DNA from: Sphaerodactylus townsendi | Lineage: Eukaryota | Assembly (NCBI RefSeq): GCF_021028975.2 | Contig: NC_059425.1 | Span: forward strand, 23,994,001-24,058,000 | Reading direction: 5' to 3' | Length of the DNA stretch: 64,000 bases | In this document: positions 1,524 through 57,207 of the stretch, one piece after another | Layout of the letters: each line of letters starts with the position of its first letter | Numbering within the stretch: the first letter of the stretch is position 1 | Notes under the pieces: model-generated | What the model saw: only the letters and a program-made list of their open reading frames with translations | Database searches by the model: none | What the model was told of the DNA's origin: nothing | Made by a program: the position numbers and the translations under genes

Positions 1524-1873
1524 AAAAGTTCTGGTCACCAGAGATTGGATGAGCCCTTCCCCCTTTCACTTGCTGGACAACTCTTTATTCAAACAATGAT
1601 TTTTCAACCTTCCAGCTGGCGTCCTTCGTTTGGCTGAAGGAACACCAGGAAAAGGCCCAGTTTGGCTATCAAGTGTATGTTCAACTGTATAGATAACCTT
1701 CCCGTCTATCTATGAATCTATAAGCCCTATCTCTATATATGGTCTTATGCACAGATATAAACTATTAGAATCTATTCCTCAGATTATGCTGACAGAATAG
1801 GGACTCGCTGCATAACGGACGCTTTTAATAATTGACTTTTGCACCGCTAAGCACGTGTTGAGAAAACAGCCGC

Positions 1874-1984
1874 CTACTGTTCCCATAATGCCTAGCAATA
1901 CTAGAGGTGTAAGTCCGGCCTGAGCCAGGACTTCAATTCCCATGATGCCCTTAGGCAGATAAGACTACAAATTCCATGATGCCT
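1874..1984 (+). promoter_or_regulatory. Three ZNF143/Staf (SBS) plus ACTACA-type motifs
   Basis: CTACTGTTCCCATAATGCCT (1874), GACTTCAATTCCCATGATGCCCT (1929), GACTACAAATTCCATGATGCCT (1963). Confidence 0.75.
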
Positions 1985-2079
1985 ATTCTTGGGCTTGGTG
2001 AGACTCCGCAGTTCCTTCGTTGTCCCCCAAAACTCGCCTTTGGGGTGTTGCTGGTCAGACCCAGAGTGGACCAAGTGTT

Positions 2080-5600: not shown

Positions 5601-8600
5601 GTAGCAAGCAGAGCATGAGAGGCAGATTTTAAGTGGCAGTCTGGATAGTAAGGGAGGAGATGGTCCTGCAGGAATCTGTGCCTGGCATGTCTGAATACGA
5701 GAGGTGGCTGGCAGCTACAAGGGGTGGATAGAAGAGAAAATTTGACATGGAGGGAAAATTTGTTTTAACTGTGAATTGAGGGCTTGTGAAGAAGAGGTTT
5801 GTTCCCCTTGCAGACCATTATTAGTTTTTTCTTAAACTCTGTGTTTTTTTTCCAGACTATAGCTGATATTATTAGAACATGTCTGGGACCAAGAGCCATG
5901 ATGAAAGTGAGAAATTCGTTTTTCCTTCCTTGGATTTTTAAAACTCATGATAAAAATATACCATGAGTATAGTTGTGCTTTTGATTTGACTGACACGTTT
6001 CTTGGAAGCTAACAAAAATACTCTTAAATCTCTGACACAGATGCTGTTGGACCCCATGGGTGGGATCGTCATGACCAACGACGGCAATGCTATCCTAAGA
6101 GAAGTAAGTTGACGTCATTCTGACACCAGGTACTTGATGTCTTAGTTTGGCTGAAAGCATGGAAGAGCTAGCGTGATACAGTGGTTAAGAGCAGCAAACT
6201 CTAATCGGAGAACCAGGTGTGATTCCCCACTCCTCCACATGAAGCCTGCTGGGTGAGCTTGGGCTAGGCACAGTTCTTTCTGAACTCTCTCAGCCTCATC
6301 GACCTCACAAGGTGTCTGTTGTGGGGAGGGGAAGGAGTTTGTGAGCCATCATGAGACGACTTACAATAGAGAAAAACAGGATATAAATCTGAATTCTTCT
6401 GTTCTAAAATTTGTAAATTAGTAGTCTCCGCTAAATAGTGCTTGAGACTGGAGAAACAAATTAGGATGCCTCAACTATAAGCTTGCTTAACAGCCTCCCT
6501 ACGCTGCCGAAAAGCCCTCTGTAGGTGGTGGAGCGTCAAGGCAGCAGCACCATCCCCGCCCACCTGGGCCTCTGGATTGAACTGCTCAGCTTCCTAGCAC
6601 TACATTCATGCGACTGACATCTACTGACTTTCTTACTGCTTTTCCAAATAGACCCCCCCCCCAAAAAAAACCCCTGCATTCATCTAGTTCATACTGTTGC
6701 TCTGAGCCTCACTGCCTCAATACCCAGCCATTGTATTGATCTTTCCTCGCATTCTCATATATTAGTGTTCCTTCAGTCTGGGGCATTCTACTGGCTGCAC
6801 CACCTTGTCCTCCCCCTAAGTTTGACAGTTAGTCTTGCCCAGAATTGGGTTTCACTCATCTTCACCGGATGGCCAAAATGGAAGATACGAGGGAAAACTA
6901 GCTATTAGGTATTAGGTAAACAATACTGTTTATAACACAAACATCTGAGAATATTTTTGAGAGCAGAGATCTCATGCTGTAACTGAAAATGTTTATCTCA
7001 GCGGTAAATGGTCTTTAAGCTTTAACAGAATTATTTACAAAGGTATATTTTGAAGTTTTGGAACAAGTCACTCTGTTGTAAAGATCTATGCCCTGCATTT
7101 TGACCAGTTGATCTCTGGGGTGGCTTATAACAGATCAGAACAAAACAAGATGGCTTCAGATGGAATGTGGTTCCTGGCTCACCTCTGTGCAGTTAAGCAG
7201 TTGAAAAAGATGCAGATGAATATAAAACCTTCCTTCCCTCTCCGTGGTGTTCTGACTACTGCTATTGTTCTTACGCAGTGAACCTAGGGAACTATCCCCT
7301 CTTGAAGTTTGCCACCAAGCTTTTCCTGTTGGTTATCTCCCACTCTTCCTTCATAGAATACAACAAACATATGATACTTCCAGCAGTGTTTGGGCCAGGT
7401 CCTGTAGCTTCAGCTTTTGAATCTAAATATACACCTTCTACTTCCTCCAGCTCAAAATTGGCCCCATTCAAACCTTTAGCGCATTTCAAGAGGTTCCAGT
7501 TGAGCTTTGGGAAGCAGACATGATCCAGAACTTAGAGCCTATGCTTCCTTCATTCTTACAGATTCAGGTCCAGCATCCAGCTGCCAAGTCCATGATTGAA
7601 ATCAGCCGCACTCAGGATGAAGAAGTGGGCGACGGGACCACATCTGTCATTATTCTTGGTAAGATCGCTTTGTGCCTGGGTACAGTTGGTGGCCACACGA
7701 CTGGTGTTTCTAAAACCAGAGGTAACCTTGCTCTGGAGTAAAAGTGCGGCTGCTCCCTTGGATGCTACGGGTTGGGTGTCATCTCCTTCAGGAGGGAGAC
7801 CATTAGGACTCTTCTGCTGCATACCCTGCTGAAATGAGTGGGAGAATCCGAAGAACATGTGTAGCTTCCATTCATTTCAGTGGGGCTCAACGAGGGAGTC
7901 TGCCTTAGTGGATTAGGTTTGTTTAGTTTGTAAGCTGCTTTTCTACACAAACATTCCCAATGTGGTTTATGTAAAAATAAACTAATTAAAGCATAAATTG
8001 AACAGCTTGTAAGAGCTTTATGAATGGCACTGGATCTAGACATAGTGGAGGATGCCTCTCTTTCCCCTGATGTTCTAGGCCAGGGGTAGGGAACCTTTAA
8101 CACTCAAAGAGCCATTTGGACCCATTTTCCATGGGAAAAGAAAACACTTGGAGCCGCAAATAATTTTTGACATTTAAAATAAAGATAACACTATATATAT
8201 TGGGGGTTTTTAACCTTTTACTCAGCTCATTCTGAGAAGCGCATGGATGCGTCCGCCCTGCTGCCTGCAGGGCGGGCAAGGATGGGGCCAGCGGCTCAGC
8301 CTCGCCTGCTGCCGGGAAAGCGCCCACCCTGCTCGAACAGGGCAGGCGAGAGGGGAAGCCAGCGGCGTGGCCCAGCCGGCTGCGGGCCATTGGTGCGCCT
8401 GCCCTGCTGCCTCCAGGGCGGGCAAGGATGAAGCCGGTGGCTCAGCCTCGCCGGCCACCGGGAAAGCACCCACCCCGCTCCAACGGGGCGGGCGAGAGGG
8501 GAAGCCCGCGGCTAGGCCCAGCCGACCGCGGGCAGTTGGTGCGCCCGCCCTGCTGCCTGCAGGGCGGGCAAGGATGGGGCCGGCGGCTCGGCTCGTGGAG

Positions 8601-11600
8601 CCGCAGTGCAAGGGCAGAAGCGCATGCGGCTCTCGAGCCGCAGGTTCCCTACCCCTGTTCTAGGCAGTGGAAGCCTGAGGCAGGGGTTACACCCCATGTT
8701 GATTAGTTTGGGGGTAGAGGCACTTGCGTGTTCGTGAACCAATTCAGGAGTCATCTCTCCTTGAAATAAGGCCGATATTGGCTAGCGAAGTGGAGATGCC
8801 ATAGACTCCTCATGGGGCAGACCAGAAAAGGAAGCGACCTGTTGATCTAGAGCAGCTCTTTGTGCCTTGGGCCACAAGGAGTGCTGCTGTCTATTCTTCC
8901 TGTTCTGTGGCCAGAAGTTCTGAAATCTTAGCTGCCCTTTCCACTCCAGCTGGGTAAAAGGCAGTGGGGAACAGACTAGGGGACTGAAAGCACAATCTAC
9001 TTTAAAATACCTGCAGTTCAGAAGTGTTTGTGTTGTGGTGATGCAAGTGTAACACAGTATAGGCAATAGTTCTGTTTTCCTGACTTCTGCTTGCTGTTTA
9101 GCTGGAGAGATGCTGGCAGTGGCAGAGCACTTCTTGGAGCAGCAGATGCACCCGACAGTCATAATTGGGGCATACCGTAAAGCACTGGATGACATGATCA
9201 GTGCCCTGAAAAAAATCAGGTGAGTAGGATGGCCCTAAGTGGGAGAGGGGGAGCACAGTGGGTGTGTGAATTGTGAAGTGCTGGCTGCATCTCTGGACAT
9301 GCTGTGGGGGATATGATGTGGGAAGTGAATCTTATAGAAGGGAAGTCATGCCAGAGGTATAACACTTGAGTTAGTACTAAGATACTTCTCTATTGGATCT
9401 GCATGTTAGAATATTTATTTATTCATTCATTTATTAGATTTCATAGACTGCCTCATCCCCGGAGGACTCTAGGCATTTCACAACACAAAACTAAAGAGCA
9501 GTCGATAAATAACTTAAATTAACTCTAAAAACATTAAAATCAGTATGCAGCATAACATCCCCATATTAGCGGCACCCGGTCTTAAGGCTGGGAGGGACTG
9601 GCAGCACCCCAGATGGAATTAATATAGAGCACTGCCAGAGATGACGCTACGACAGGGCCTCACAAGGGGGCAGAGTACAGACTACAGAATACAGACTCTA
9701 GCTTTGTGACAGAGCATGCCATTTCCAAGTCCAGATTCGTGATAGCAGAGCTAGGAAAAACCTTATCTCGCTTCCGTTCAGAACAAAGAACTGGACTAGA
9801 TGGACTGATGGTTAGGCAACATAAGGAAGCTTCATAGGTTCGGGAGAGACTGTAGAGCCAAGTCTCCATTCCCAGCATCTCCCAGTTAAACGATCTTAGG
9901 TTCCAGTTATGGGAAAGATTTTTCCCTGCTTGACGACTTAGAGAAGATCTCCCAGTTGAAGTAGATAGCATTGGTCTAGATGAGTCAATGACGGGACTAG
10001 GATAACATTACAAATTGAAATGGATTTTAAACCCATCAAATTGCTACAGCTTCCAGCTCAGGTAGGTGCCTGAAGCAGCTTTAGGGATTTCTGACAAAGA
10101 ACTCTTAATGCTTTCAAACTGAGGATCCATAGGGAGAGCCAGGACTATTTTTTGTGATGATATCGAGTTCTCCCAAGTCCGAATCCTTGTGCACTGGCCT
10201 ACCCTGCTTAGCCAGAAAAAAAGAGCAGAACCTGATGAACAAAACTGGGATGTGTCCAGTTGTTGGAGAAAACTAATGGATATTGGCACGAACTTTTATG
10301 AGTACTGGAACTTTTTTTAACCAAAACACTATGGGGACCTGTGATGGCTAATTTGTTTCCAACATTTACAGTTGCTATATTGTTGTTCCAAAGTCATCTA
10401 TTCAGCGGATTAGGAAGGTGAATAGCAGTTAATGTTTGTTTGTTTTTTGTCTTCTGGTTTGTGTGCCTCACGTGGCTTCCACAGCACTCCAGTCGAAGTC
10501 AACAACCGTGAAGCCATGCTTAAAATAATCAACAGCGCCATCAACACCAAGGTGATCAGTCGCTGGTCAGACCTGGCCTGCAACATTGCCCTGGATGCCG
10601 TCAGGACTGTGGAGCTTGAGGAGAACGGCAGGAAAGAAATTGACATCAAGAAATATGCCAAAGTAGAAAAGGTGCAAAGGAGACCTGTGTGTGTTTGTGT
10701 TACTTTAGCAAGGTGGTGCTTACTGTTGGTTGATGTGGGCAGAAGGGATTTGGGAATAGATGACATTTCCTTATTTCTGGTTTCCTCAGTATGTAGAAAA
10801 GGAGGTGTTCGTGTTTAGCTCATAGTTTGTTAGATTGGAAGAGCTTTTTTTTAAGGCAAGGAACTCTCGCATCCTTCCTTTCTCTCTGATATTTCTGCTA
10901 ACAAATACATTCTTCTCTGGAAAGATTCAGCACTTTGGCCCCACCAGATCATACTTTGGAGGAAGGTGTATTTAATTACTATTTTTCAGTATCTTTAAAT
11001 AGTTTATATAAGAAGGAGCCTAATAAAAGTTGGGGAGAGATTTGTGGCTGCATCTGTGTCTAGGCCCAGTAGGCATCTTTCGTCCCCTGGGTTGATTTCC
11101 TCCTGCCTATCAGAAGATGAGGCTCAGTACTGCTTCTAGGCCTGGAGAGGACTTAGCTCAGTTGCCTTATGACACAAACATCCAGGATCACTGAGTTGTT
11201 TAAGGCTTAATAGTGCCTTTTGCTTATTCCAGATTTTATGTTGGTCATGTGACTAGTTCACACGTTTCATTCAGGCTAACAATTAAGTATCACCAATCAA
11301 GTAAGTCAGGCACTCATAGTGATACTGATGAAGACTTCGAAAAATGCTGGATGCGTTTCTTCACTGATTTCACTGAAAAAATTAAGTGACTTTTCTACTA
11401 CAAGAATTTATGAATGAGTTGATGATTTGTAATATAATGAAATTTGACTGAATTGACAGTTTGAAGATAAAACTCTGGTATTTGGTATGGATATGCTAAA
11501 TGAGATAGTCCAACTTAATTGTTAGGATAGTATATATTGATGACAACCTTATGGGGTTTATGTATTGTGATACTTACAATTGATAAAAGTTCATTAAAAA

Positions 11601-14600
11601 ATACAAATTTCTGTTGATGTTTACAGCCTGAATGCAGCGTGTGAACTGTTGGATATTTGGATGTTATAGACGTCGCATTCATTGTTGATTGTAATTTAGG
11701 TCATGTGACTAGGCCATGAAGGAAACTCATTTGCACATCTCCCATACTCCTTTGCCTTGCTACAAAAACTGAATGACTCCTGGCCTCTTAATCCCCCAGA
11801 TTCCTGGTGGCATTATTGAGGAGTCGTGTGTCCTACGTGGGGTCATGCTTAATAAAGATATCACTCACCCTCGCATGCGTCGCACCATCAAGAACCCTCG
11901 CATTATCTTGTTGGACTGCTCTTTGGAGTACAAGAAAGGAGAGAGTCAGGTATGTCTGCTGGAAAAATTGAGATTCATCAGGAATCGTCCACAGAGGTTC
12001 AAGTATGACTTGGGAACCGCATGGATCAGAAGCTTGTTTTGTATTTTAACTGGGGGAGATTACCCAGGAGTAAATTGTTACTTCTTTATGTAACCAGTTC
12101 AGCAACCTCCCATTTATTTCTGAGGTAGGGCTAGGGCCCCAGTGGTGGCGAACCTGTGGCACTCCAGATGTCCATGAACATCTGGAGTGCCATAGGTTCG
12201 CCACCATGGGGCTAGGCAAATAACTTCTGTTCTTGGTTCTTCCCAGTGGGAGAAAACACACAGCCCATGCCCACTGCAGTTCAAAGCAACAGGGCTTTTG
12301 GGAGCTCCAGCTTTGTGAACTTCCCAGGCATGCAGCTCAACCGGGACACTTGCTTTTATCTCCCACCACTTGGAGAACTTTCATCTTTTAAGTTGGCAGC
12401 AGTGCCAGCTTGTTGCACAGAGGCAACAATTATTCAGGCTAGCAACAAAAAGGAATGGAAGAAGCTTCTGTTGAAAAGATGCTTCAAAAAGAAGTCTATA
12501 AACTTGCCTTTCTAAAAACAAACAGAAAAGCTAAGCTTCTTAAGAAGCTGGACTTGGTCAGGACCGTTGGCATTCTTTTCATGCAGACGGACATTGAAAT
12601 CACCCGCGAGGAGGACTTTGCCCGCATCCTGCAGATGGAGGAGGAATTCGTTCAGCAGATTTGTGAGCACCTGATCAGAGTCAAGCCAGATCTCATCATC
12701 ACAGAAAAGGGCATCTCAGGTAAGCGTCCTGCCTACTCTGGAGGTATATATGAATGGGGCTACAAAACCTCTAACTTGTATGAGTGTCTGTGGTGCTTAA
12801 TGGGCTTTTCTCTTGACTTCAGACTTGGCCCAGCACTTTCTGATGAGAGCCAACATCACCGCCATCCGCCGAGTGAGAAAAACAGACAACAACAGGATTG
12901 CAAGGTGAGGCGAACTTGAGTTGCTGCTGGAACCCCTTTGACATTTTTGTAGTGTCATTCCTGAGGTGCTTTTGCATCTCTTGCATTTCATTCATTTGCA
13001 CTGGATTGATAAGAGGGCAGCTGATATAACCAGGGCAGAACAGGAGGGTGAAGAGTGCCAGATTTCCCATTTTCTCCCGTGTCTGTCAGCTGTCTAAATG
13101 AAATCTTCAGACTGATTGCTGCTTGGGCAAGTGTTTTTTAACTGTGGAGGAGTTTGGGAAGCATGATAGAGAGCCCAACAGAAACTTCTTAAAGCTTTCC
13201 TTCTGATGCCAGCTATTGAGGAAGAGCTGGCTGATGGTTTCAAAAACTCTATTGGAATTTCTGCAGTTATAAGCCAAAGAAGCCTCGTTGCCTAACGTAA
13301 CTGTAAATATTTCTGGAACTCGGCAGAGCAAGGAAATTGACAACCTGACAAGGAAATGGATTTTCAAAGTCATAAGAACATAAGAACTAGCCTGCTGGAT
13401 CAGACCAGAGTCCATCTAGTCCAGCACTCTGCTACTTGCAGTGGCCACCAGGTGCCTTTGGGAGCTCACGTGCAGGATGTGAAAGCAATGGCCTGCTGCT
13501 GCTGCTGCTCCTGAGCACCTGGTCTGCTAAGGCATTTGCAATCTGAGATCAAGGAGGATCAAGATTGGTAGCCATAGATTGACTTCTCCATAAATCTGTC
13601 CAAGCCCCTTTTAAAGCTAGCCAGGTTAGTGGCCATCACCACCTCCTGTGGCAGCATATTCCAAACACCAATCACACGTTGTGTGAAGAAGTGTTTCCTT
13701 TTATTAGTCCTAATTCTTCCCCCCAGCATTTTCAATGAATGCCCCCTGGTTCTAGTATTGTGAGAAAGAGAGAAAAAATTTTCTCTGTCAACATTTTCTA
13801 CCTCATGCATAATTTTATAGACTTCAATCATATCCCCCCTCAGACATCTCCTCTCCAAACTAAAGAGTCCCAAACGCTGCAGCCTCTCCTCATAAGGAAG
13901 GTGCTCCTTCAATCATCCTCGTTGCCCTTCTCTGCACTTTTTCTATTTCTTCGATATCCTTTTTGAGATGTGGCGACCAGAACTGAACACAGTACTCCAA
14001 GTGCGGTCGCACCACGGCTTTATATAAGGGCATGGCAATCCTTGCAGTTTTATTATCAACTCCTTTCCTAATTATCCCCAGCATAGAGTTTGCCTTTTTC
14101 ACAGCTTCCATGCATTGAGTTGACATTCCCATGGAACTATCAACTGAGACGCCCAAATCCCTTTCCTGGTCTGTGACTGATAGCACTGACCCCTGTAGCG
14201 TGTATGTGAAGTTTGGATTTTTTGCCCCTATGTGCATCACTTTGCATTTTGCTACATTGAACTGCATTTGCCATTTCTTAGCCCACTCACCTAATTTATC
14301 AAGGTCCACTTGGAGCTCTTCGCAATCCTTTGTGGTTCTCACCACCCTACATAATTTGGTATCATCTGCAAACTTGGCCACCACGCTACCCACCCCTACT
14401 TCCAGATCATTTATGAATAAGTTAAAGAGCAGTGGTCCCAAAACGGATCCTTGGGGGACACCACTCCCTACATCTCTCCATTGTGAGAACTTCCCATTTA
14501 CACCCACTTTTTGCTTCCTGTTTCTTAACCAGTTTTTAATCCATAGGAGGACTTCCCCTCTTATTCCTTCATTGCTGAGTTTTCTCTGGTGAGGAGACTA

Positions 14601-17600
14601 GCACTTCCATCTTTAGAATTGATCATTAGTGGTACCTTAGTGACAAAGTCTGTCTTTCAAGAAAGGAGTCTGTGTGTGTCCAGAATTGTAATTCTGTTGC
14701 TTCCAGGTTCAAACAGACCCTCAGCATGGGGGGGTGGGTCTTTTGTGTGGCAGGGCCTGCGGAGCTCGTATCGTCAGCCGTCCAGAAGAGTTGCGTGAAG
14801 AGGATGTGGGCACTGGGGCAGGGCTTTTTGAAGTGAAGAAAATCGGAGATGAATACTTCACCTTCATCATTGATTGCAAGGAGCCCAAGGCCTGCACCAT
14901 TATGCTTCGGGGTGCCAGCAAAGAGATCCTAGCAGTAAGTAAACTACAGGCTTTAGCCTTTTGAAAAATGAAATTTCTGGGGAAAGGTGGGTAATGGATT
15001 TTGACTGAGAGTGGGGGTGTTTTGGAGTTCTGATTTTAAAAGCATCCCCAAATCTGAGGGGGGCCTATCTTTGAATTAAAAAAATTAAAAACTAGTTCAG
15101 TGCTCTGTCCTATTTCAGGACGGCGTCCAGTACCTAAAGAAGTACTTTTCATGCAGCTGATAGGTCATGACATAGTTTAATTTTGAAAGGATTTGAAGAC
15201 GCATTGCATCTTTAACACCCAAAAAGTTTCTTTGGAACTGTTAATTAAGGAATAAAGGCTACCTGCCTTCAGTAGAGTCCAATTCCTAATTGGAAGAAGG
15301 CATTTGAAAAGGAAATAGTAGCTTAGTGGTAGATCATGTGTATTATATACTGAAGGGCCCAATTTCAGACCCTGTTTTATCCAATTAAGTGGTCTCAAGT
15401 AGCGGTTGAGGGGGTGTCTTACCCTGAAGCAATGGGAGGGACAGTACTGAGCTAGCTAGGTCAGGGGTAGGGAACCTGCGGCTCTCCAGATGTTCAGGAA
15501 CTACAATTCCCATCAGCCCCTACCAGCATGGCCAATTGGCCATGCTGACAGAGGCTGATGGGAATTGTAGTTCCTGAACATCTGGAGAGCCGCAGGTTCC
15601 CTACCCCTGACCTAGGTCAACTAGTTCTCTGACAATATATAAGCTAGCTTCACGTCCTCCTAAGAAACAATAAGAGGGCACTGACTCCTGCAGGGACCTA
15701 GCAGCTTCCTTTGGGTATGGGTGATATCTGTGATCACTCAGGCACTCCCACTACAGATTTGCATCCAGTGCTGAAGGGTGGGCAGAACTACCAGGAAGAG
15801 CCTGGTTGGAAGGTAACAAGGACAGAGCTGTGATTTATGCAGTGTAGCCAGCTTCCTCTGTGGGTAGGTAGACTTGATTTCATTAGTTAATATCTTGCAG
15901 CATGCTAGTAATTCTTTGAGCGTTTCCGTAGCTTGCTGTACCTTGTCCGTCCATGGTGCAAACTCTTTGCTCAAACCCTCCCTTCTTACAGGAGGTGGAG
16001 CGCAATCTCCACGATGCCATGCAAGTTTGCCGCAACGTCATGATAGACCCCCAGCTGGTGCCGGGAGGTGGTGCTTCCGAGATGGCCGTCGCTCATTACT
16101 TGACAGAGAAGTCAAAGGTCATGACTGGAGTGGAACAATGGCCCTACCGAGCTGCTGCCCAAGCCCTAGAAGTCATTCCTAGGACACTTATTCAGAACTG
16201 CGGTGCTAGCACCATTCGTGCACTCACTTCGCTACGGGTAAGGACCATGTTCGTGCTGCTCCACTATGGCTGCTGCTCTAATGTTCATACTTGGTGGGGC
16301 TGGCATGCCTGTCAGTCAACTCACTGGGTTTAAGTGTTTCAAATAGTCCTGGCTAGCCTGATCTTGTCAGATCTCAGAAGCTAAGCAGGGGGTCAGTCCT
16401 TTCAAGTATTTGGATGGGCGACCTCCAAGAGAGAACCAGGGTCATAATACGGAGGCAGGCAATGGCAAATCAACGCTGAATGTCTCTTGTCTTGAAAACC
16501 CTATGGGGGTCACTTAAGTCAGCTGTGACTTGATGGCAAAAAAAGTCAGGGTGGCAGCCAAAGAGAACAGTTTAGTGAATTGTTCACTTGTCTAACACTG
16601 GTCAGTTAATTTTTCATCATTACAGTTAACTGATTTGGTTTAGCCATTGCACCTACTGATAACCAAACTATGCTTCTTTTCTGGTAGATCATTTTAAAAT
16701 AATATCTGACAGTATTTGGTCAGTTAGATAGCAGGTACTCATTTGAACAGCAGTTTGCCAAGCCTTCTTTGACCAAATTTCTCTCCTTAGTGTATAAATA
16801 CAAACCGAACTAAATCTTAGCCTTTCAGTCACTCTTCCTGCTGCTGTTTGATGGATGTCTAAAATGGTCCCTGCGATGCCCACTCTTATTGCTTTACAAA
16901 TAAGTGTAATAGGTTCAAAATAATGTCTATTTATTCCTTTCTCTATATATATTCTGCTGTCACCAGGAATCTAATTCCCCACCCCTTTATTCTTTCATCT
17001 GAAGAAGTGTGTCCAAGGTTTAAAGCAGTTCAAAGGGCTATGTGGTCCTGAGGAAATTACTAGTGTGAGAATCCTGGTTACTTTTCACAAATTAAAACTT
17101 TATTTAAATATGTTCTGTAGCTTAAAAGTTTCAAAAAATAATTTACAATAAGTAAAACAAACTGAGGCAACAACTTCTGCTGAGGTGATGTTCACTTTAC
17201 ATCAGTCCGTTCTCTCCTTTTCATCTCTGAGACCATCATAGGATCTAACTCCTTTTCTGGCCTCTTAAAGGCCTGTTCCACATGGGCCAGAAAGACTGGC
17301 ATGGGGCCCGTAAAAACGCCGTTGTGGGGGGAACTTTGCACCGCTGCTGAAGCACAGCTGCAGCGGCATCCCCCCCCCCCCAACAACGGCATTTTTGTGA
17401 CTTGCTAGTTGAGCAAGTCTTTTTGAAAGCGGCATCTTCCCGCTAGCCCCATGCAAAGAACACTGGCGTGAGGGCATCGCTTTTAGGCACTGCCTATTGG
17501 TTTTGTTTTCCTACCTTTTCTTCCTTCCAGCTCTGGAGGGCGGGAGGGACATGCCCATGCTGAGTTGGAGGGCAGCGTGTGCATGTCCCTCCCGCCCTCT

Positions 17601-24501: not shown

Positions 24502-24953
24502 CAGGGGTCTCCAATGTGGGGACCATAGTGCCCACTAGGTGTTTTTGAAGCTAGGGAAGACCAGGAAGGTCTTTTGCCTAACAAGGCTTCTGATTGACCA
24601 CTGCACTGCTGTGTTATTTTTTAAATGTTGCTTTAAAAGCAGCTGAGGGGAAGCCCGCGGTGCGGCCCAGCTGGCCACGGGCAATTGGTGCGCCCGCCCT
24701 GCTGCCTACAGGGCGGGCAAGGATGAAGCCGGCGGCTCGGCCTACCAGCCACTGGGAAAACACCTGCCCTGCTCCAATGGGGCAGACAAGAGGGGAAGCC
24801 CGTGGCGCAGCCCAGCCGGCTGTGGGCAGTTGGTGCACCTGCCCTGCTGCCTGCAGGCGGGCAAGGATGGGGCCAGCGGCTCGGCTCGTGGAGCCTCAGT
24901 GCAAGGGCAGAAGAGCCGCATGCGGCTCTCGAGCCGCAGGTTCCCTACCCCTG
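24502..24953 (+). mobile_element. Chimeric hAT MITE (left end of one family, right end of the 8081 family)
   Basis: 24502-24644 resembles the 40660-40960 family; 24645-24953 matches the 8081 family through TIR GGTTCCCTACCCCTG; no TSD. Confidence 0.7.
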
Positions 24954-31900: not shown

Positions 31901-34520
31901 CTTTGAGGAAGAGATGCAATTTGGTTTTGGTTTCCAAAGCAAGGGAGGGCTTGCTCCCAGTGTGGTGCGGGAAGAGGCTGACAAATCCCCAGGTGTAAAT
32001 CTGGGCCTGTGTGTAAACTGAACACACATGAGCACTCCCAGTGAGCTTTGCTGGTTAATCAGATGGTAAAGAGGGGATCTACAGCTCCCTGTTTTCTTCC
32101 ATTTGTTTCAAGCCCCTTTCCATTCTGGACTTCCAAGCAGGGGCATACCATCCATGGGGACATGGGGTAACCCATGTGTGTGACGTAACCCATGTCCCCA
32201 GACGCACATAGTCCTGGGTGCCGGCACCAGCTCCAGGCGGTAGACCTGGACGCCTGCATCACCTCTGAGCAGAAGACCTGGATGAGCTCCAGGTAGTACA
32301 CCTCAGTGCTGGCACAAACTCCAGGCAGCAGACCTAGATGCTGGCACAGGCTTCAGGCAGTAGACCTGGGCTCTGGACGGTTGACCTGGGGAGATGTGGA
32401 AAATTCAGATTTTGTCTCCAGGCTCCAGTTTTCCTAGATACGCCTCTGCCGCCAAGATTCAGGCTGGAGAAACATCTTAGGGCCAATTGGCCATGCTGGC
32501 AGGGGCTGATGGGAATTGTAATCCATAACATCTGTAGTGCCAAAGGTTCGCCACCACTGTCTTAGGGCTTCCAGCTCCAAGTTGGAAATTCTTGGGGATT
32601 TGGGAGTGGAGTCTGGGAGAGGCAGGGTTTGGGAGGGGAGGGGCCTCAGCTGGCTGCAATGCGATGGATTTAGGCAAAACATCAAGGCACCAAGACAGTT
32701 TTATCATTGTTATATCAGTCATCCTCACAACCGCTCTGTAAGAAAGGCCCTCTTTACAATTATTATCTTGCTGATAGGATTGACTGAGAGGCTGAGTTGG
32801 GGAAACAGTTGACATAAGGATACCTAGAGAGGTAATGATTGATGGGAGAGCTGAACCAGGGGCATCCCGGCTCATTGTCCCCTTTTTACAATATTTCTGT
32901 GCTAGTATACAGATATGCTGCATCAACAAGCAGCCGACTTTGTGATCTTCTTGATATTCCATTGTGTGCAAAATGTGGGGTCAAACGATAACTACAAAGG
33001 ATCCCTTGTGGGCTGTTTTGAGACTTAGGAGATGGGGCAAAATCTGACCCTATGCATTTCCTAGCAGACTCAATTCAAGGTGCTGGTATTGACCTTTAAG
33101 ACCCTAATAACTCGGGCCATTAAAGGCAGCCTTTTCCTATATGAGATGACTCATTCACTCCAGTCATCTCTTGAGTGAGACCCAGGCCCTGCAGGACTTG
33201 GTCCAATTCCACAGGGCCCGTAAGACTGAGATGTTCTGCCAGGCTTACGGCTGGGGCTGTGACCCTTTACATCTCAGTTGACCTTCATATCCCCCTCTCT
33301 CTTGTGTGTTAGTATCTTTAATTGTTTTTTTATTCCTTTCCCCTTCTTTTTCTCCTTCCCTCCTTCTCCAGGACCCCCATCAATGTACTATTAAGGGTGC
33401 CGCTTGAATTTTTACAGTTGGAATTGTGAAGTAATAGGATTTTAATTATTGTAGAGATTCTTAACATTCATGTTTGAACTGTGATGCGAGCCACTCTGTG
33501 GCTGACCATGACCGGGAAAAGGTAACATACAAATCCAATAAAAGAAATAAATTGGAGGCCCTCCTGCGGTTGCCACTCCATCTGAGACTAGAGGGGTGAC
33601 AACCCAAGAACAGGGACCAAAACTTTGGAACTCCTTCCCATGGAGATTCATCTGTCTTCCTCTGTCAGTGTCTTCTGCCAGTTGATGAAGATTTTTTTTT
33701 TATTTAGTTGGGCTTTCCCCCAATAATTGCTGTTGGCCTCCTCCCTGGTTCGGTGTTGTAGGCTTATGTATTTTTATTGAATCATTGTAAATGCTGTTTT
33801 AATACTCAAACGATTTAATGCTTTCATATTTGCTGCCTTAGAGACCTAATTGGGTGGAAAGGCGGCTTAAAAACATCTCAAATGATAATAAAGGTGTTGA
33901 TGTCTGATGAGGGTGAGAAAAAAACTTATTTTTTCGTACGAAAAAAACTACTATTTTTCGTAGATTCCTTTTGGTTCATCTTGTGAAGGTATGGGGTAAA
34001 TCCCCTATAGCAGAGTAGCACAATATTCTCACATTAATTCACAAGCAAAGTGCTTCGCAAGGCAAAGCGAAGAAAAGTGTCTCATAGTCCTCAGTATATA
34101 TCAGTGATGGCGAACCTTTTCGAGACCGAGTGCCCAAATTTCAACTCAAAACCCACTTATTTGTCGCAAAGTGCCAACACGGCAATGTAACCCGAATACT
34201 GAGGTTTTAGTTTAGAAAAAACGGTTGGCTCCGAGGCATTCGTTACTTGGGAGTAAACTTGGTGGTAGTCGGTGACTTTGCTTTGAAGCAACCGTGCAAC
34301 TATTCCAATGGGTGAATCACGACCCTAGGAGGGATTACTCTGAAGCAAGCCCCATTGCCAGCAACTGAGCTTACTCCCAGGCAAAGGATTGCACTTTAGT
34401 TCTTCGCATGAAAATCAGTGGGGTTTAACAGCGTTTTACAGGGTTACCTACACTGCTTCCCCAAAACTAGGTCTTAGGTTTAATGCTAATATCCAAGCCC
34501 AGAGACCCAGGCCAGCCTAG

Positions 34521-34552
<32 letters not shown>

Positions 34553-37500
34553 AGAACTCTTTTTGCGTGTGCCCACAGAGAGGGCTCTGAGTGCCACCTC
34601 TGGCACCCATGCCATAGGTTCGCCACCACTGGTATATATCCTCAGTATATATATATATGCAGCCTTATATCTGGTTTACTGGCCTATCACAGTTCTTTAC
34701 CAATCAATCCCAGAATGACTCTGTGTCAGGTGTTACCTGTCAGTTAGCTGTCAGTTAGATTTTGATGATCAGACAGATGTTACATCAGTGCTCTGACAAT
34801 CTTCATCCAATGCAGGTTAGCAACTGGATTGTGGAAAAAGCTGTACATTCATGGGTTTCTCATCTGAACATTTCTAGGTGTTTGAGTACAACGGTGTCAA
34901 CACGTCCAATCTCCTCAAGGTGCCTGCAGATCAGTTCTACCCCACCTATGATTTGGCCAATTTTACATGGGAAAGCCTTGATGGCAAGATGAACGAGACC
35001 ATGCTGACAGCTACATTTCAGGGTGCTGCCTCAAGCCCCCATGGAGCCTTTGGGAATGGCAGTATATCCTTTGAGGTAAATAGCAGGGCAATTGAGTGTT
35101 TCTTAAGCAGCAGGAAAGAAACTGAGCAGAACAGAGGATGAGAAATGATGGGTTGGTTAGGAGAAGGTGGATGTAGGGGACTGAGAGGCAGAGTATCTGA
35201 AAGGAGAGGAAATATCTGTTCCTATAAGCCTGAAATTATGGGCAGGGCTTGGAGGAATTTCGGAAACTGGAGGGGGCTAGAGTTCCCTGTAGTTGGCCAA
35301 TGAAGCCTTCTTCCTGACTTAGAATCATAGAGTTGGAAGAGACCACAAGGGCCATCAAGTCCAACCCCCTGCAATGCTGGAATACACAATCAGAGCATTC
35401 TTGAGAGATGGCCATCCAGCTTCTGTTCAAAAATCTCCAAAGAAGGAGACTCCACCACACTCCAAGGTAGTGTATTCCACTGTTGAACAGCCCTTTCTAT
35501 CAGGAAGTTCTTCCTAATGTTTAGGTGGAATCTCTTTTTTTCACCTTGAATCCATACCTTGTCTCTATCTCTGGAGCAGCAGAAAACAAACTTGCTCCAT
35601 CTTCAACATCACATCCCTTCAAATATTTAAACATGGCTATCATATCACCTCTTAACCTTCTCTTCACCAAACTAAACATACCCAGCTCCCTAAGACCCTC
35701 CTTGTAGGGCATGGAATGCAGACCTTTTAAGAACATAAGAACAAGCCAGCTGGATCAGACCAGAGTCCATCTAGTCCAGCTCTCTGCTACTCGCAGTGGC
35801 CCACCAGGTGCCTTTGGGAGCTCACATGCAGGATGTGAAAGGAACGGCCTTCTGCGGCTGTTGCTCCCGATCACCTGGTCTGTTAAGGCATTTGCAATCT
35901 CAGATCAAGAGGATCAAGATTGGTAGCCATAAATCGACTTCTCCTCCATAAATCTGTCCAAGCCCCTTTTAAAGCTATTCAGGTTAGTGGCCATCACCAC
36001 CTCCTGTGGCAGCATATTCCAAACACCAATCACACGTTGCGTGAAGAAGTGTTTCCTTTTATTAGTCCTAATTCTTCCCCCCAGCATTTTCAATGAATGC
36101 CCCCTGGTTCTAGTACTGTGAGAAAGAGAGAAAAATTTCTCTCTGTCAACATTTTCTACTCCATGCATAATTTTATAGACTTCAATCATATCCCCCCTCA
36201 GCCGTCTCCTCTCCAAACTAAAAAGTCCCAAACGCTGCAGCCTCTCCTCATAGGGAAGGTGCTCCAGTCCCTCAATCATCCTTGTTGCCCTTCTCTGCAC
36301 TTTTTCTATCTCCTTTTGCCATTTTGGTCACCCTCCTCTGGACCCATTCCATTCCAATATCCTTCTTGAATTGCGTTGTCCAGAACTGGACACAGTAGTG
36401 CAGGTGAGGTCTGACCAATGCAGAATAGAGTGGTACTATTGCATCCCTTGGTCTAGACACTATACTCCTATTGATGTAGCCCAGAATTGCACTGGCTTTC
36501 TTGGCTGCCGCATCACACCGCTGTCTCACGTTCAGGTCTACTCCCAGATCCATTTCACATGTACTGTTGTCAAGTCAGGTGTCACTCATCCTATATGTGT
36601 GCATTTCATTTTTTTCTGCCTAAACGTAGTATCTTACATTTATCTCTGTAGAAATTAATTTTGTTAGTTTTAGCCCAGCTCTCTAAGCTGTCCAGGTCCG
36701 TTTGAATTCTGACCCTGTCCTCTGGGGTATTAGCTACCCCTCCTAATTTGGTGTCATCTGCAAAATTGATTAGCATGCTGTCTATTCCATCATTACCACT
36801 GGATAACTTCTCATCCCTCATCACAGGTAGCAGAAGCAAAGACATAAGTGAGGAACTAACTTGCCAAATTATCTTCCAACATTGATGTAATCCTTCCCAT
36901 CTTCAGGTGACGGCTTATGAAGAGAGCAGTCGTGACACCCAACTCCCCCATCTCCTCCACACAGCCAACTGCTCCAAGGTCAACTTTGTCGTGAATGGGG
37001 TGCCACCACGGGGTAACCACTCCCACTTTGCTCTGGAAATCATCACAGTGGAAGAGGGAGGGGAGCACAAGCGCATGGACTCTATCCGCTCCATTGATGA
37101 TGAGTATACCCCAACAATATTTGAGGTACAGTGTAGGCTTGTTGTTGGAATTCTTTCAATACCAGGGACTCGAGACCTGGGGCACCCTTTTAAACAAGTA
37201 TAATGTGCCTTTAGCCAAAAAATTAGATTTGGCTCCATGCACCTGAGATTATGGAAAGGTGTTTCTGGGGTATGGCAATTGGGGCTAGGCACAGTGATTT
37301 TCAAACAAGCGTCAGCCTTTGTGTAGAACTTAACTATTGGATAAGGAGCTAGCTCAGGGGTCTGCAACCTGCAGCTCTCCAGATGTTCATGGACTACAAT
37401 TCCCATCAGCCCCTGCCAGCATGGGATTTGTAGTCCATGAACATCTGGAGAGCCGCAGGTTGCAGACCCCTGAGTTAGAGCAAAGTTGCCTTCTAACATG

Positions 37501-43213: not shown

Positions 43214-43399
43214 CAGCGGTTCTCAACCTGGGGGTAGGGACCCCTTTGGGGATCGAACGATCCTTTCACAGGGGTCGCCTAAGACTCTCTGCATCAGTGT
43301 TCTCCATCTGTAAAATGGATAAATGTTAGGATTGGGGGTCACCACAACATGAGAAACTGTTTTAAAGGCTCACGGCATTAGGAAGGTTGAGAACCACTG
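43214..43399 (-). mobile_element. SPIN (URR1-like) hAT MITE
   Basis: Reverse complement of 38946-39132; perfect TSD AGTTAATG. Confidence 0.9.
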
Positions 43400-44429: not shown

Positions 44430-44938
44430 CAGTGGTGGCAAACCTTTGGCACGGGTGCCAGAGGTTGCACTCAGAGCCCTCTCTTTGGGCACGCACAAAC
44501 AGAGTGCCCCCCCCCCCATCTAGGCTGGCCTGGGCCACTGGGCTTGATTATTAGCATTAAACCTAAGACCTCGTTTTGGGGAAGCAGTGTACGTAACCCT
44601 GTTAAGCGCTGTTAAACCCCATTGATTTTCATGCAAAGAACTAAAGCGCAATCCTTTACCTGGGAGCAAGCTTGATTGCTGGCAACGGGGCTTGATTCTG
44701 AGTAAACCCTCCTAGGGTCGTGATTCACCCATTGGAAGAGTTGCATGGTTGCTTCAAAGCAAAGCCACCGACTACCACCAAGCTTACTCCCGAGTAATGC
44801 ATGCCTTAGAGCCAACCGTTTTTTCTAAACTAAACCCCCAGTATTCAGGTTAAATTGCCATATTGGCACTTTGCGATAAATAAGTGGGTCCTGGGTTCCC
44901 ATTTGGGCACTTGGTCTCAAAAAGGTTCGCCATCACTG
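44430..44938 (-). mobile_element. hAT non-autonomous element, copy of the 34102 family
   Basis: TSD TCATATGT on both sides; TIRs intact. Confidence 0.92.
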
Positions 44939-46261: not shown

Positions 46262-46559
46262 CAGTGTTTCCCAACTTTTTCAACATCACGGTACCCTTGA
46301 CCTCACTCTTCATATCTCACGGTACCCCTGCCATCCCCCCACCTTCCCCTCCCAGGGTGAAGGGAAGCACTGGGGTGGTGGTGCGGGAATTGGCTGCTGA
46401 CCTTTCGGCAGGCCTTGCCTCCTGGGCTAGCTCCATGTCCTTGCTAGCGCCAGTGGGAGACACCACAAAAGTGAGGGGGGCCGGTAGTGTTGCCGCGGTA
46501 CCCCTGGGACATGCTCACAGCACCCCAAGGTACCACGGAACCCTGGTTGGGAATCGCTG
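46262..46559. mobile_element. hAT (Charlie-like) MITE
   Basis: TIR CAGTGTTTCCCAAC / GTTGGGAATCGCTG; TSD CAATACAT/CAATACGT. Confidence 0.85.
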
Positions 46560-47894: not shown

Positions 47895-50800
47895 CTGAGG
47901 GGGAAAAAAGAATGAAGATAGGGAGATGGTCAAAAATATGACAGAGAACTCCATAATAGACCTTTCCTCCAAGAAGAACTTTAATCCATTTTAGTGATGC
48001 CAGTGGAGGGTGGGGGTGTTAACCAAATGAGTAATCTTGAGGCAGCAAATGAAGGGTATAGATCATTAAAAGGGAAATAAGATTTTTGCTACACATTAAA
48101 AACCCATCATAGTGGTAAAGTTATGCCGGTCATCCCAACTGCCAAGACCTCAGTTCTTTGAAGAGCAAAAATATTTTGAGGAAATATTTGAGGGAGCAGC
48201 TGTTACTCCTTGGAGTTATTTGGACGTTTGTGGATAGAGTCTTCACAGATCCTACTAAACACCAGAAATATTACAGATCTTTGTGGCAGCTTAGCCAGCC
48301 TGGTTGTTTCTCCAGAGATAAATAGACCAGTGTGTGAAAAGGGGTTTGGTTGGTAAATGAAAGATAACAAAATACAAGCTATCTCCCCACAAACCTGTAG
48401 AATTATCACAGACCCTGCTTCCAGAATATTAAAGAAGAAGAGTTTGGATTTATACTGCCTTTCTCTCTTGTAAGGAGACTGAAGGTGGCTTACAAACTTT
48501 CCCTTTCTCTACCCACAACAGACACTTTGTGAGGTAGGTGGGGCTGAGAGAGTTCTGAGAGAACGGTGACTAGGCCAAGGTCACCCAGCAGGTTTTATGT
48601 ACAGGAGAGGAAAATCAAAACCAGTTCTCCAGAATAGAGTCCACTGCTCTTAACCACCATACAATGATGGGACTTTTTATATTCTTTCTTCACAATACCA
48701 CTTAGCGTGGTATAGAAGAGGAGTTTAGATTTATACCCCACTTTTCTCAACCATAAGGAGTCTCAAAGCAGCTTACAAACTCCTTCCCTTTGCCTCTCCA
48801 CACTTTGTGAAGCAGGTGGGGCTGAGACACTGAGAGAACTGTGTGGTAGTTAGAGTTCTGGGCTAGGATTTAGGAGATGCAGTTTGCATTCCAACTCCAA
48901 CATGAAACTTACTGGGTGACTAAGCCAATTCTAAGCCTAACCTGTGTCACAAAACAAGAGAACAATGTTTGAATGAGCTACTTTGGGTCATTGCGGGTGA
49001 GGAAAGAAGCATATAAATTAAATAACTAAACACTGGCTACGCTTCATAATGCATCAGACAGACACTTCCACACTTCCTCCACTGTGATGATCTTGATTAA
49101 ACTCTTTCCTGTATCAATACATTTCCCCAGCTACCCAAATTAAGCTAGCCATCAGCTAGGCTGTTGTGGGTTTTCTAGACTGTGTGGCCATGGTCTGGTA
49201 GTTTTAGCTCCTAATGTTTTGCCCTCCTCTATGGCTGATATTTTGAGAGGCATGCAACAGGACGATGTGTTTTTGTCTGTGGCACAGGAGAGAACTAACA
49301 CTGCCAGACCAGGGCCACCCAGCCCAGAAAACCCACAACAGCCTGTTGAGTCTGGCTGTGAAAGCTTTTGACAATATACCACCTGGGAGAATTCCCCAAG
49401 ACAGCCATGGTTGCAGAAGGATGCTGGCAGGACAGCTTCTCTTACCGTGAAATGGCAAAAAGGGCTGTCAGCAGAGGAATGAGCTTGAGGCCTTCCTGAG
49501 GCAGGTAAGTGGAGAGAACGGCGATGTTGAAGAAATACAGGATGAAGAGGTGGACCGACTGGGACACATAGTGGCGGTGGATCTCAACTTCCCGCCGCAG
49601 CTCCCCAAAGGGCTGTAGAGAGGAAAAGCACAGGCGGGACAAGCCGTATACAACCATGCCTGGAGTGGAAAGGAAGGCCAAAAGAGAGCACATCTGAACA
49701 TCAACGCGTGTTTTTTTTCTAGCAGACACCAATCCTGTGCCAGTGGTGATATAAACTGCGCCCTAAGGGCCAAACTAGACAAAGACAGTTTTTCATAAGT
49801 TGGGTGTGGATTCCCCAACCAGGCTTTCAAACATTTAACACTTCTGGAAACCCATTGGCCAAGTTCGCAGGATCCCAATTGGGAGCAGAACTGTAGCATG
49901 ATCGCACAGGGATTTTGGCCTCCCCTTCACAATTCTCCCAGTTGGGAGTACTATTAGACCAGGGGTAGGGAACCTGCGGCTCAAGAGCCGCATGCGGCTC
50001 TTCTGTCCTTGCACTGTGGTTCCACGAGCCAAGCTGCTGGCTTCATCCTTGCATGCCCTACAGGCAGCAGGGCGGGCACACCAATTGCCCGCGGCCTACT
50101 GGGCTTCCCCTCTCGCCCGCCCCATTGGAGCTGGGCGGGCGCTTTCCTGGTGGCCAGCAAGGCCAAGCCACTGGCCCCATCCTTGCCCGCCCTGCAGGCA
50201 GCAGGGCGGGCGGTATCCATGCGCTTCTCAGAATGCGTGGAGTAAAAGGTAAAAAAAACCCAAAATATACAGTGTTATCTTTATTTTAAATGTCAAAAAT
50301 TATTTGCGGCTCCAAGTGTTTTCTTTTCCCGTGGAAAACGGGTCCAAATGGCTCTTTGAGTGTTAAAAGGTTCCCTACCCCTGTATTAGACCTACTGGGA
50401 AACTGTACATGTTGGGAAAACAGCACAGGGGAGGCTGAAGCCACTTCCCCCCTCCTCTGTGGTCACGATCCCATCAGTATGACGTTTGGTTGATGGCCTG
50501 AAAGTCAGGTCAGAAAACCCTCACCCAACTGACGAAAAACTGTCCAATTCGGCTCTAAAGAAAGATGGATTCAGGAACCTGAATAAATAACACAAGCCTG
50601 TGTTACTTTGCTTTTCAAATATTTTCCAGCTGTACCAAGCTACCAGGTGCAGTCCAGTTTTCTATTTCTACCTTTGGGGGATACCTTTTTTCATTTTTTA
50701 AAAGCTAATTACTAGACATGTCATTCTTCAGGGGTCAGTTCCATCCCCAAGGACCCAGAGAGTTCAGTCTCAGAGTTGTCAAGACAAATGTTTCCATGTG

Positions 50801-55994: not shown

Positions 55995-56075
55995 CCGTGG
56001 TGGCGAGCCTATGGCACTCCAGATGTTCATGGACTACAATTCCCATCAGCCCCTGCCAGCATGGTCAATTGGCCA
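55995..56075. mobile_element. Left half of palindromic hAT MITE inside a degenerate Penelope-derived insert (55903-56112)
   Basis: CCGTGGTGGCGAGCCTATGGCACTCCAGATGTTCATGGACTACAATTCCC...CAATTGGCC. Confidence 0.78.
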
Positions 56076-57207
56076 TTATGGCCACACAGCCTGGGAACCC
56101 CACAACAGCCAATGTCAAGACTGTTGCTACAGTCTCAGTCTGGGGACCCTCTATGTTTGGGAGTTCCTAGAGTCACTGTGCTAGAACTTAAAACCAGGAC
56201 AGGCTTTTACCCTGTCCCCTTAAAACCTACCTGAAAATGGCCACCTCTCTATAGCCCCCAAACTGTGAGGGCATTCTGTGATGTTCGGAGGAGCCCTGGC
56301 ACAAAAATAACACATTCCTGCACTAAACCTTGGCATAATTTACAATAACAACAACAATACTGATTCCTGGCCAATGAGTTAAAACCAGATTTTTGGCACA
56401 TAGTAGCATAAAGGATGATTACACGGAAAAAAGCTAAATCCGCAAGGGGGAAAGGCAAGACTACGTAATCCACTTCAATAGGGTCCCTTTGATCATTTTA
56501 CAGTTCCACCCTATCAAAAGTCCCACACGTAGACATGAGACCATCAGGCGTAAAAAGGAGAGCAAGAAAGAAATCGCCGCAATCAGGAAAGTGTTTGAAG
56601 CCGGTTTAGAACAGGAGGCAAATCATAAAGGCAGAAGTGAATTTACAGGGAAGAACAACCTCCAAAAACTTCACAGAAAAAGAAAGAAAATGGATCTTAC
56701 CCAGGCAGAGATACGCATACATAAACTCACCAGGCCACACACCCTTCGCCCTGTTACCTGCTCCACCCAACCCACCTTCCCCTCTTTGAAACTCACTTTT
56801 TAACCTGAGGAAACAAAACTGAGCTTGCTCCCGATTGCTAGGAAGTAAATCCGGTTGCTGAAGGTCTGCTTCTGCTGGGAACTGTAATGCGTATTGTAAT
56901 GCTTCCCCTGTGCTTTCCCTTGGACTTTCAAACCAGTCTAACCAGCCCAGGTGGGGCTTGCGTAAAAGGACAGGAGGGCTGGCTGGCTGGCTTAGACCCA
57001 CCCTCCAGCACCTTGAGGCGGGCCAAAACGGTTTCTTTAAAAATACGTCAACTGAAAAATGTAGCTGTATTCACCCACATATAGTAAAAAAAAAAATTAA
57101 CAGCAGAACTAGTTTACTCAGATACTTGGTTAAATCAAGATAAGAAAGAATGGTGTTACGACACTGTAAAGGCCCAACAATGATTACAGCATTCATGGCC
57201 TTCAATT

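Follow-up and report, generated by a model that had tools for sequence, protein, structure and literature searches.

The coral CMITEs of Acropora (PMC2872659) are MITEs of ~100 bp in which the interior is more conserved than the TIRs, of which there are six families; one family shares the ends of an autonomous element, and cross-mobilization together with a role for the interior has been proposed. These are piggyBac-type elements with a TTAA target and CCYT ends, whereas the MITE described here, placed at 15462..15609 of the window (the whole 64-kb stretch of DNA analyzed), has an 8-bp target and CAG ends. In a further difference, PMC2872659 describes the CMITE interior neither as a full palindrome nor as a host-factor site and does not match the ends to several partners that each have a distinctive subterminal repeat. 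The orphan hATs of Anolis carolinensis (notably hAT-N1_AC and hAT-N4_AC; PMC3014272) resemble an autonomous family in the TIR alone. Of these, hAT-N1_AC measures 135 bp and has 57-bp TIRs, >1,000 copies and a TA-centered 8-bp target. End swaps by recombination are shown in the same paper for the hobo_AC families, and its available part holds no description of one core carrying the ends of several families. A third comparison is MLT1J (PMC3627581), a transposable element bearing the ACTACA-TCCCA motif, SBS2, as the MITE does; MLT1J is an LTR element with a full ZNF143 site and ZNF143/THAP11 binding in human cells, whereas the 15462 element is a DNA MITE with two inverted candidate sites. Conserved-core/variable-TIR MITEs (coral CMITEs) and orphan hATs (Anolis) are already known and stand as precedents. 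Similar hairpin elements probably occur in other lizards, snakes, and frogs, and the CORE-type SINEs, which keep a lasting central core and change their LINE partner by tail swap, are retrotransposons and a conceptual analogue only. The literature, searched apart from Repbase and Dfam, yielded no report in which a single hAT core bears several TIR-plus-repeat ends matched to different families, and none in which a hAT MITE carries a THAP11 site; hAT and MITE are absent as whole words from PMC6050309. The subfamilies are probably already catalogued in Repbase/Dfam.

The 15462 element is a non-coding palindrome of 148 nt with 74-nt arms that differ at 3 positions, and its hairpin (15462-15609) has a z of -23 against 200 shuffles. 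It lies within a TCP-1/CCT3-type gene, with TCP-1 exons on either side (12581-12721 and 15974-16246) and a likely intronic position, and is bounded by the TSD AGCTAGGT/ACCTAGGT, matched at 7/8 bases. The left end (15462..15484, + strand) is composed of a 16-nt TIR, a 2-nt spacer, and a GGCTC repeat and is termed type 1; the right end (15587..15609, - strand) has the same sequence. Over the copies in the window the TIR starts CAGGG or CAGTG in 6/8 arms, the other two being mutated, and fits YARNG with a length of ~16 bp, and TA is present at target-site positions 4-5 (nnnTAnnn) in 5/5 copies. Such 8-bp TA-centered target sites are the Buster pattern (PMC3499496). Short, non-coding, TIR-bounded, and multicopy (148 nt; five copies/64 kb), the element is classed by its structure as a non-autonomous Buster-type hAT MITE.

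The type-2 copy (37355..37472, 118 nt) lies in an intron of a GLMP/NCU-G1 gene with a TSD of 5/8; a 30-nt central deletion between two ATGG has left motifs at 37393 (+) and 37434 (-). The type-3 copy of 70 nt at 12140..12209, in a TCP-1 intron, has the center and both motifs deleted, and its TSD is uncertain (7/8, displaced 3 nt from the left end). Two further copies are single type-3 arms. The first (32483..32559, - strand) has a spacer 1 nt shorter and sits inside the perfect 8-bp TSD TCTTAGGG (8/8), and because a single arm is found between perfect target sites the second arm was likely lost following insertion. The other (55995..56076, + strand) carries the motif at 56033 and is followed by 5/8 target bases. 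One of the five copies is full length, two are centrally deleted, and two are single-arm, and a core profile search finds no sixth copy in the 64-kb window, the best non-copy match being the promoter unit at 1928-1946 (E 0.09). The density in the window is 78 copies per Mb (95% range 25-182).

Two longer non-autonomous hAT families, F1 and F3, reside in the window. F1 is represented by 8081..8657 (TSD 8/8), the 8657 end of which has a GGCTC array and is identical to the type-1 end, by an inverted copy at 49960..50383 (TSD 8/8), and by a partial copy bearing the GGCTC end at 24645..24953; inside the family, a 146-nt tandem unit rich in GC is seen at 8242-8563 and 24645-24888. F3 is represented by 34102..34631 (TSD 8/8), with a GGCAC array at the 34631 end that matches the type-3 end, and by an inverted copy at 44430..44938 (TSD 8/8) that is identical to it at 452/509 positions. 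Past the TSD of the 34102 element, 13 more left-flank bases (34089-34101) recur rightward at 34639-34651. In a comparison of TIRs only, F3 fits the hAT-HT1_AC TIR CAGTGATGGSSAACCT, the left end at 34102 and the right end at 44938 both starting CAGTGATGGCGAACCT. A pair of 186-187-nt elements (38946-39132 and 43214-43399; TSD 6/8 and 8/8) has the SPIN TIR and a GGGTC array, and hAT-HT1 and SPIN are both horizontally transferred families in Anolis (PMC3014272). Each family is enriched for its own pentamer: GGCTC occurs 19 times within 320 nt in F1 versus 0.6 expected (GGCAC 0), GGCAC 11 times within 256 nt in F3 versus 0.45 expected (GGCTC 2), and GGGTC 10 times within 256 nt in the SPIN-type pair versus 0.37 expected, with non-own pentamers near background in all three. 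A 298-nt hAT element at 46262-46559, with hAT-HT3-like ends and a TSD of 7/8, has its own repeat, GGTACC (four sites), which brings the GGNNC repeat series to four members. The pentamers are likely transposase (BED-domain) binding sites, because the comparable short subterminal repeats of Hermes bind the BED domain (PMC10368747), and F1 and F3 would likely depend on different transposases. Other repeats of the window include lone hAT-like ends at 24502 and 40660 that follow TA-centered sites, with no partner end found, a degenerate inverted repeat at 38052-38286 (83-nt arms, 82% complementary), and RVT_1 reverse-transcriptase fragments at 13890-14597 (-) and 62390-63523 (+). A SINE-like family, which we take to be Sauria-type, is frequent; this family and the resemblance of several ends to Anolis families make a lizard the likely host.

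Each MITE end runs from the TIR through two bases to a single partner pentamer at positions 19-23. The type-1 end is identical at 23/23 nt to 8657R, 24953R, and 49960L (15462..15484 has 0/23 mismatches to one F1 end), and the type-3 arms have 1-3/23 mismatches to whichever F3 end, 34631R or 44430L, fits better. Past position 23 the longer arms and the families are unrelated, with 14-19 mismatches per 22 nt, and the longest core-to-family match is 9 nt (E 1.0). Both MITE arms correspond to one partner end and not to its left and right pair; with the opposite partner end the 16-nt TIR alone is common, and 3-7 mismatches occur in positions 17-23. The sequence-only reading had placed five copies of one core here with three end types, equated the first end with that of the 8081/49960 family over 23 nt, matched the third to the 34102/44430 family, and held that these longer elements share no interior with the core, all of which is borne out. 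Types 1 and 2 have a common subterminal repeat, and no family with a type-2 end was found in the 64-kb window. The base at position 17 is T both in the type-3 arm with the short spacer (32537-32559) and in the F3 copy 44430 (44430-44452), and A in the type-3 arms 55995 and 12209 and in the F3 copy 34631. Two separate captures, from two F3 subfamilies, may possibly have occurred. The 20 bases printed for hAT-N1_AC equal the SPIN-type end at window position 39132 (PMC3014272). The hAT-N1_AC end CAGTGGTTCTCAACCTGTGG is not matched by the MITE, whose arms have 4-6 mismatches to the SPIN-type end in the first 16 bases. Inside, hAT-N1_AC presumably has the same core as the 15462 MITE.

Part of the element is present in 18/20 listed public runs with five organism codes. 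Contigs of four runs (X1, X7, X9, and X17) were aligned to the left arm and flank, the small-share runs X10-X14 being left out, and the 8,426 contigs aligned in X1 and 22,565 in X17 are not copy numbers. Run X1 possibly comes from the source itself and is then not independent evidence. The contig ends are a mixed, unphased consensus with an agreement of 0.38-0.65. Among the rows listed, loose ends pile up in X1 at 15462 (110 contigs), 15473 (105), 15480 (114), and 15500 (34), and in X17 at the same four places (208, 216, 217, and 89). The flank consensus at the 15462 pile ends TCTAGAC in both runs. The 15473 pile is the type-2 end, preceded by TCTAGAT, and the 15480 pile is a fourth end, CAGGGGTGTCCAACTCT, which is one base shorter and preceded by TTAGAC; because these target-site-like flanks adjoin, the type-2 and fourth ends likely transposed as such. 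The X17 pile at 15500 (89) is a type-3-like end with the one-base-shorter spacer seen at 32559. One X17 contig spans flank and end with 1 difference, and because it bridges the two, X17 carries the 15462 insertion. Both the type-1 and the fourth end are present in X7, and the X17 reading of the fourth end agrees over 16 bases with a TIR printed for a further Anolis family (PMC3014272). In X9 (the more distant organism D), where 1,185/1,987 contigs are <90% alike and the flank is uncovered, the outer core and the motif are unchanged, and the ends are of a GGCCC type with a different spacer. The center is asymmetric in organism D, with one half matching the 15462 arm and the other half shorter, an arrangement in keeping with fold-back as the source of the symmetric form. 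One near-identical core thus bears at least four end types in this lineage, and two of them match a resident family over the TIR and the first family-specific repeat. Elsewhere, Rfam gave 0 matches at the gathering score, phage BLAST gave no match, and exact-pattern scans of viral contigs, prokaryote genomes, and metagenomes found no element copy; the one metagenome match (L001) lacks both the MITE ends and the core and is put down to chance.

The MITE versions probably ride the transposases of the partner families, by whatever route the switching takes place, and the ends were likely acquired and not tuned by point mutation. As the route, we lean slightly toward capture of a new end followed by copying to the other arm. 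The gene-less palindromic MITE would borrow the transposase of each hAT family in turn; a new end would enter one arm through recombination or template switching within the first 23 bases, which are ~70-75% alike, and hairpin fold-back would then copy it to the opposite arm, and the versions fitting the currently active transposase would multiply. Capture would stop at position 23 because end-to-end homology stops there. In its favor, the MITE pentamer at positions 19-23 tracks the family that partners the TIR. The hairpin rearranges, since the 32483 copy lost an arm between intact target sites, and the arm losses in the window together with the asymmetric organism D form, as they are read here, show that such rearrangements happen. 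The sequence-only proposal of a cassette switching transposase partners by acquiring new TIRs holds as far as the core is joined to the ends of different families, and it is extended by the repeats, the fourth end, and the organism D ends. Acquisition itself is only likely, and counting against capture, a transposase family (Pfam) is absent among the 120 window ORFs of at least 95 aa, leaving no autonomous partner among these long ORFs. Hermes also counts against it: most of its activity is gone once the ends are symmetrized, and 100-200 bp of each end are required by several hATs (PMC10368747), whereas the 15462 MITE has two identical 23-bp ends in place of long asymmetric ones. Buster enzymes may differ from Hermes, or the core may help.

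Stepwise tuning, in which point mutations are selected toward the preferred end of a new transposase and are copied between arms with no captured DNA, is a less probable route, to which we give some weight. It draws on the closeness of the end types, which also speaks against capture: types 1-3 are only 3-8 bases apart in register with no gaps, so that a large family could feasibly pass from one to another by stepwise mutation under selection, and GGCTC, GGCAC, GGCCC, and GGGTC differ by single bases. The left end at 12140 has a type-1-like base at position 17 and looks intermediate, a private mutation being the other reading of that base, and the invariable end of the match at position 23 is a boundary that tuning predicts too. 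The 23/23 identity to F1 is harder to accommodate, as it includes TIR positions 8-11, which are variable between types that have one common pentamer. The fourth end would require an indel plus several base changes, and the loose ends (among the rows listed) pile at a few exact places.

There is little chance that no real switching occurs, with Buster transposases cross-mobilizing loosely and the end types being drifted subfamilies of one lineage, similar to other hAT ends only in the way that all hAT ends are alike. All ends do share CAG.GGT....AACCT and the target preference, and types 1 and 2 are only 3 positions apart, but the chance tests argue otherwise: of 200,000 hAT-like ends made by column shuffling, none reproduces the F1 end and 0.05% come within 1 of an F3 end. 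The TIR and the pentamer, moreover, change jointly, in step with the partner family. The cores differ less than the ends when types 2 and 3 are compared, with end versus core differences of 11/23 versus 0/47, 9/23 versus 2/46 (P 0.0005), and 10/23 versus 1/29 (P 0.0006). This is the CMITE-like pattern of an interior more conserved than the ends, and it is weaker or absent for type-1 pairs: between types 1 and 3 an excess of end over core differences is found in 4/8 arm pairs (P 0.006-0.03, the rest P 0.09-0.64), and between types 1 and 2 there is no such excess (P 0.2-1.0). Co-divergence of the MITE with F1 and F3 is ruled out, as F1 and F3 align over their tips alone, with otherwise no match at E 1, so that the shared core does not come from whole-element co-descent, the core being nearly unchanged while the families are unalignable.

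Each arm of the 15462 element contains a 13-mer, ACTACAATTCCCA, equal to a published THAP11-binding-site probe, located at 15500..15512 (+) and, inverted, at 15559..15571 (-), 46 nt from the first. The THAP11-DBD bound a probe equal to ACTACAATTCCCA in PMC3627581. The sequence-only reading had a motif in each intact arm; the exact 13-mer is present in 4/6 motif-bearing arms and ACTACAnnTCCCA in 5/6. The same reading had assigned the CCT3 promoter array to this motif class: three SBS/M4-like units are indeed found at 1873..1989 (+), ~600-700 bp upstream of the TCP-1 start and outside the MITE, but none has the exact 13-mer, the nearest having 1 mismatch at 1930. Its further suggestion that the element spreads the motif agrees, at the sequence level, with all 4 exact 13-mers of the window sitting in MITEs, and is tempered by the one copy that lacks it. 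In types 2 and 3 the motif is also preceded by GG, as in the human promoter motif (PMC1669715, PMC5006282), and RBPJ and Ikaros are reported on the TCCCA half too (PMC3627581, PMC5006282). The ZNF143 half is altered in the MITE, AGCC replacing ATGC, with the TTCCCA half of SBS1 kept. The motif spacings of 46, 36, and 16 nt were considered as a 10-nt periodicity and this was rejected, the 16 being explained by the ATGG microhomology deletion.

The candidate THAP11-type motif belongs to what is conserved in the core on the sequences compared. When organisms A/E are set against D, ACTACA and TCCCA are unchanged beside an altered spacer (15495-15499) and inner arm, a comparison biased by the alignment; the motif gap is 36 nt in organism D (X9 on 15500-15538) versus 46 at 15462, and the listed variant common to most runs falls at the free motif position 15507. 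The chances are about even that the motif has no function and is a relic left over from captured promoter-type DNA, kept only by the youth of the core or by block copying. Across four runs the outer core CTCCAGATGTT varies as little as the motif does, the 70-nt copy exists without the motif, and the ZNF143 half is degenerate, with 10-12/18 matches of the MITE arms to the SBS1 probe (scored on the probe sequence) and ATGC absent in 6/6 arms, versus 13/18 with ATGC kept in two promoter units, the third unit being left out of this scoring. A relic is less easily reconciled with the stability of ACTACA and TCCCA beside a varying spacer and inner arm, subject to the same alignment bias, or with the low chance of the motif per arm, ~2e-6 for the exact 13-mer and ~4e-5 for ACTACAnnTCCCA, uncorrected for the many known motifs. 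A helper role of THAP11/HCF-1 is possible but improbable. Any role in pairing the ends would more likely be that of THAP11 than of ZNF143, because ZNF143 is reported without a general looping function (bioRxiv 10.1101/2024.03.08.583987) and THAP11/Ronin assembles promoters (PMC10329844). Pairing of the ends by ZNF143 bound to both arms, one part of the sequence-only proposal, is unlikely in the extreme, for despite the TTCCCA half and the partial SBS1 match, the ATGC core is altered, the ZNF143-DBD did not recognize the 13-mer probe alone in gel shifts (PMC3627581), and the bioRxiv report denies ZNF143 a general looping function.

A more speculative reading, which we consider improbable, is that the core is a universal adaptor, in which two inverted THAP11/HCF-1 sites would replace the long asymmetric subterminal arrays, so that a 23-bp plug of TIR and one repeat would be enough to couple the core to each new Buster transposon; the parasite would outlive a succession of horizontally transferred hosts in different lizard lineages, and copies of a housekeeping-promoter motif would come to exceed its promoter sites by far. 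If the window is typical, MITE copies would far outnumber the ~520 human promoter sites (PMC5006282). A core replugged with TIR-plus-pentamer modules would form a natural series on how hAT transposases read ends, and with THAP11 bound to it, the element could also titrate a housekeeping regulator or redirect it; should neither apply, this is an ordinary abundant hAT MITE, probably in repeat libraries already. The element bears on how a fully symmetric 148-bp form spreads when a model hAT requires long asymmetric ends, and on how MITEs originate and how they persist past the extinction of a partner transposase.
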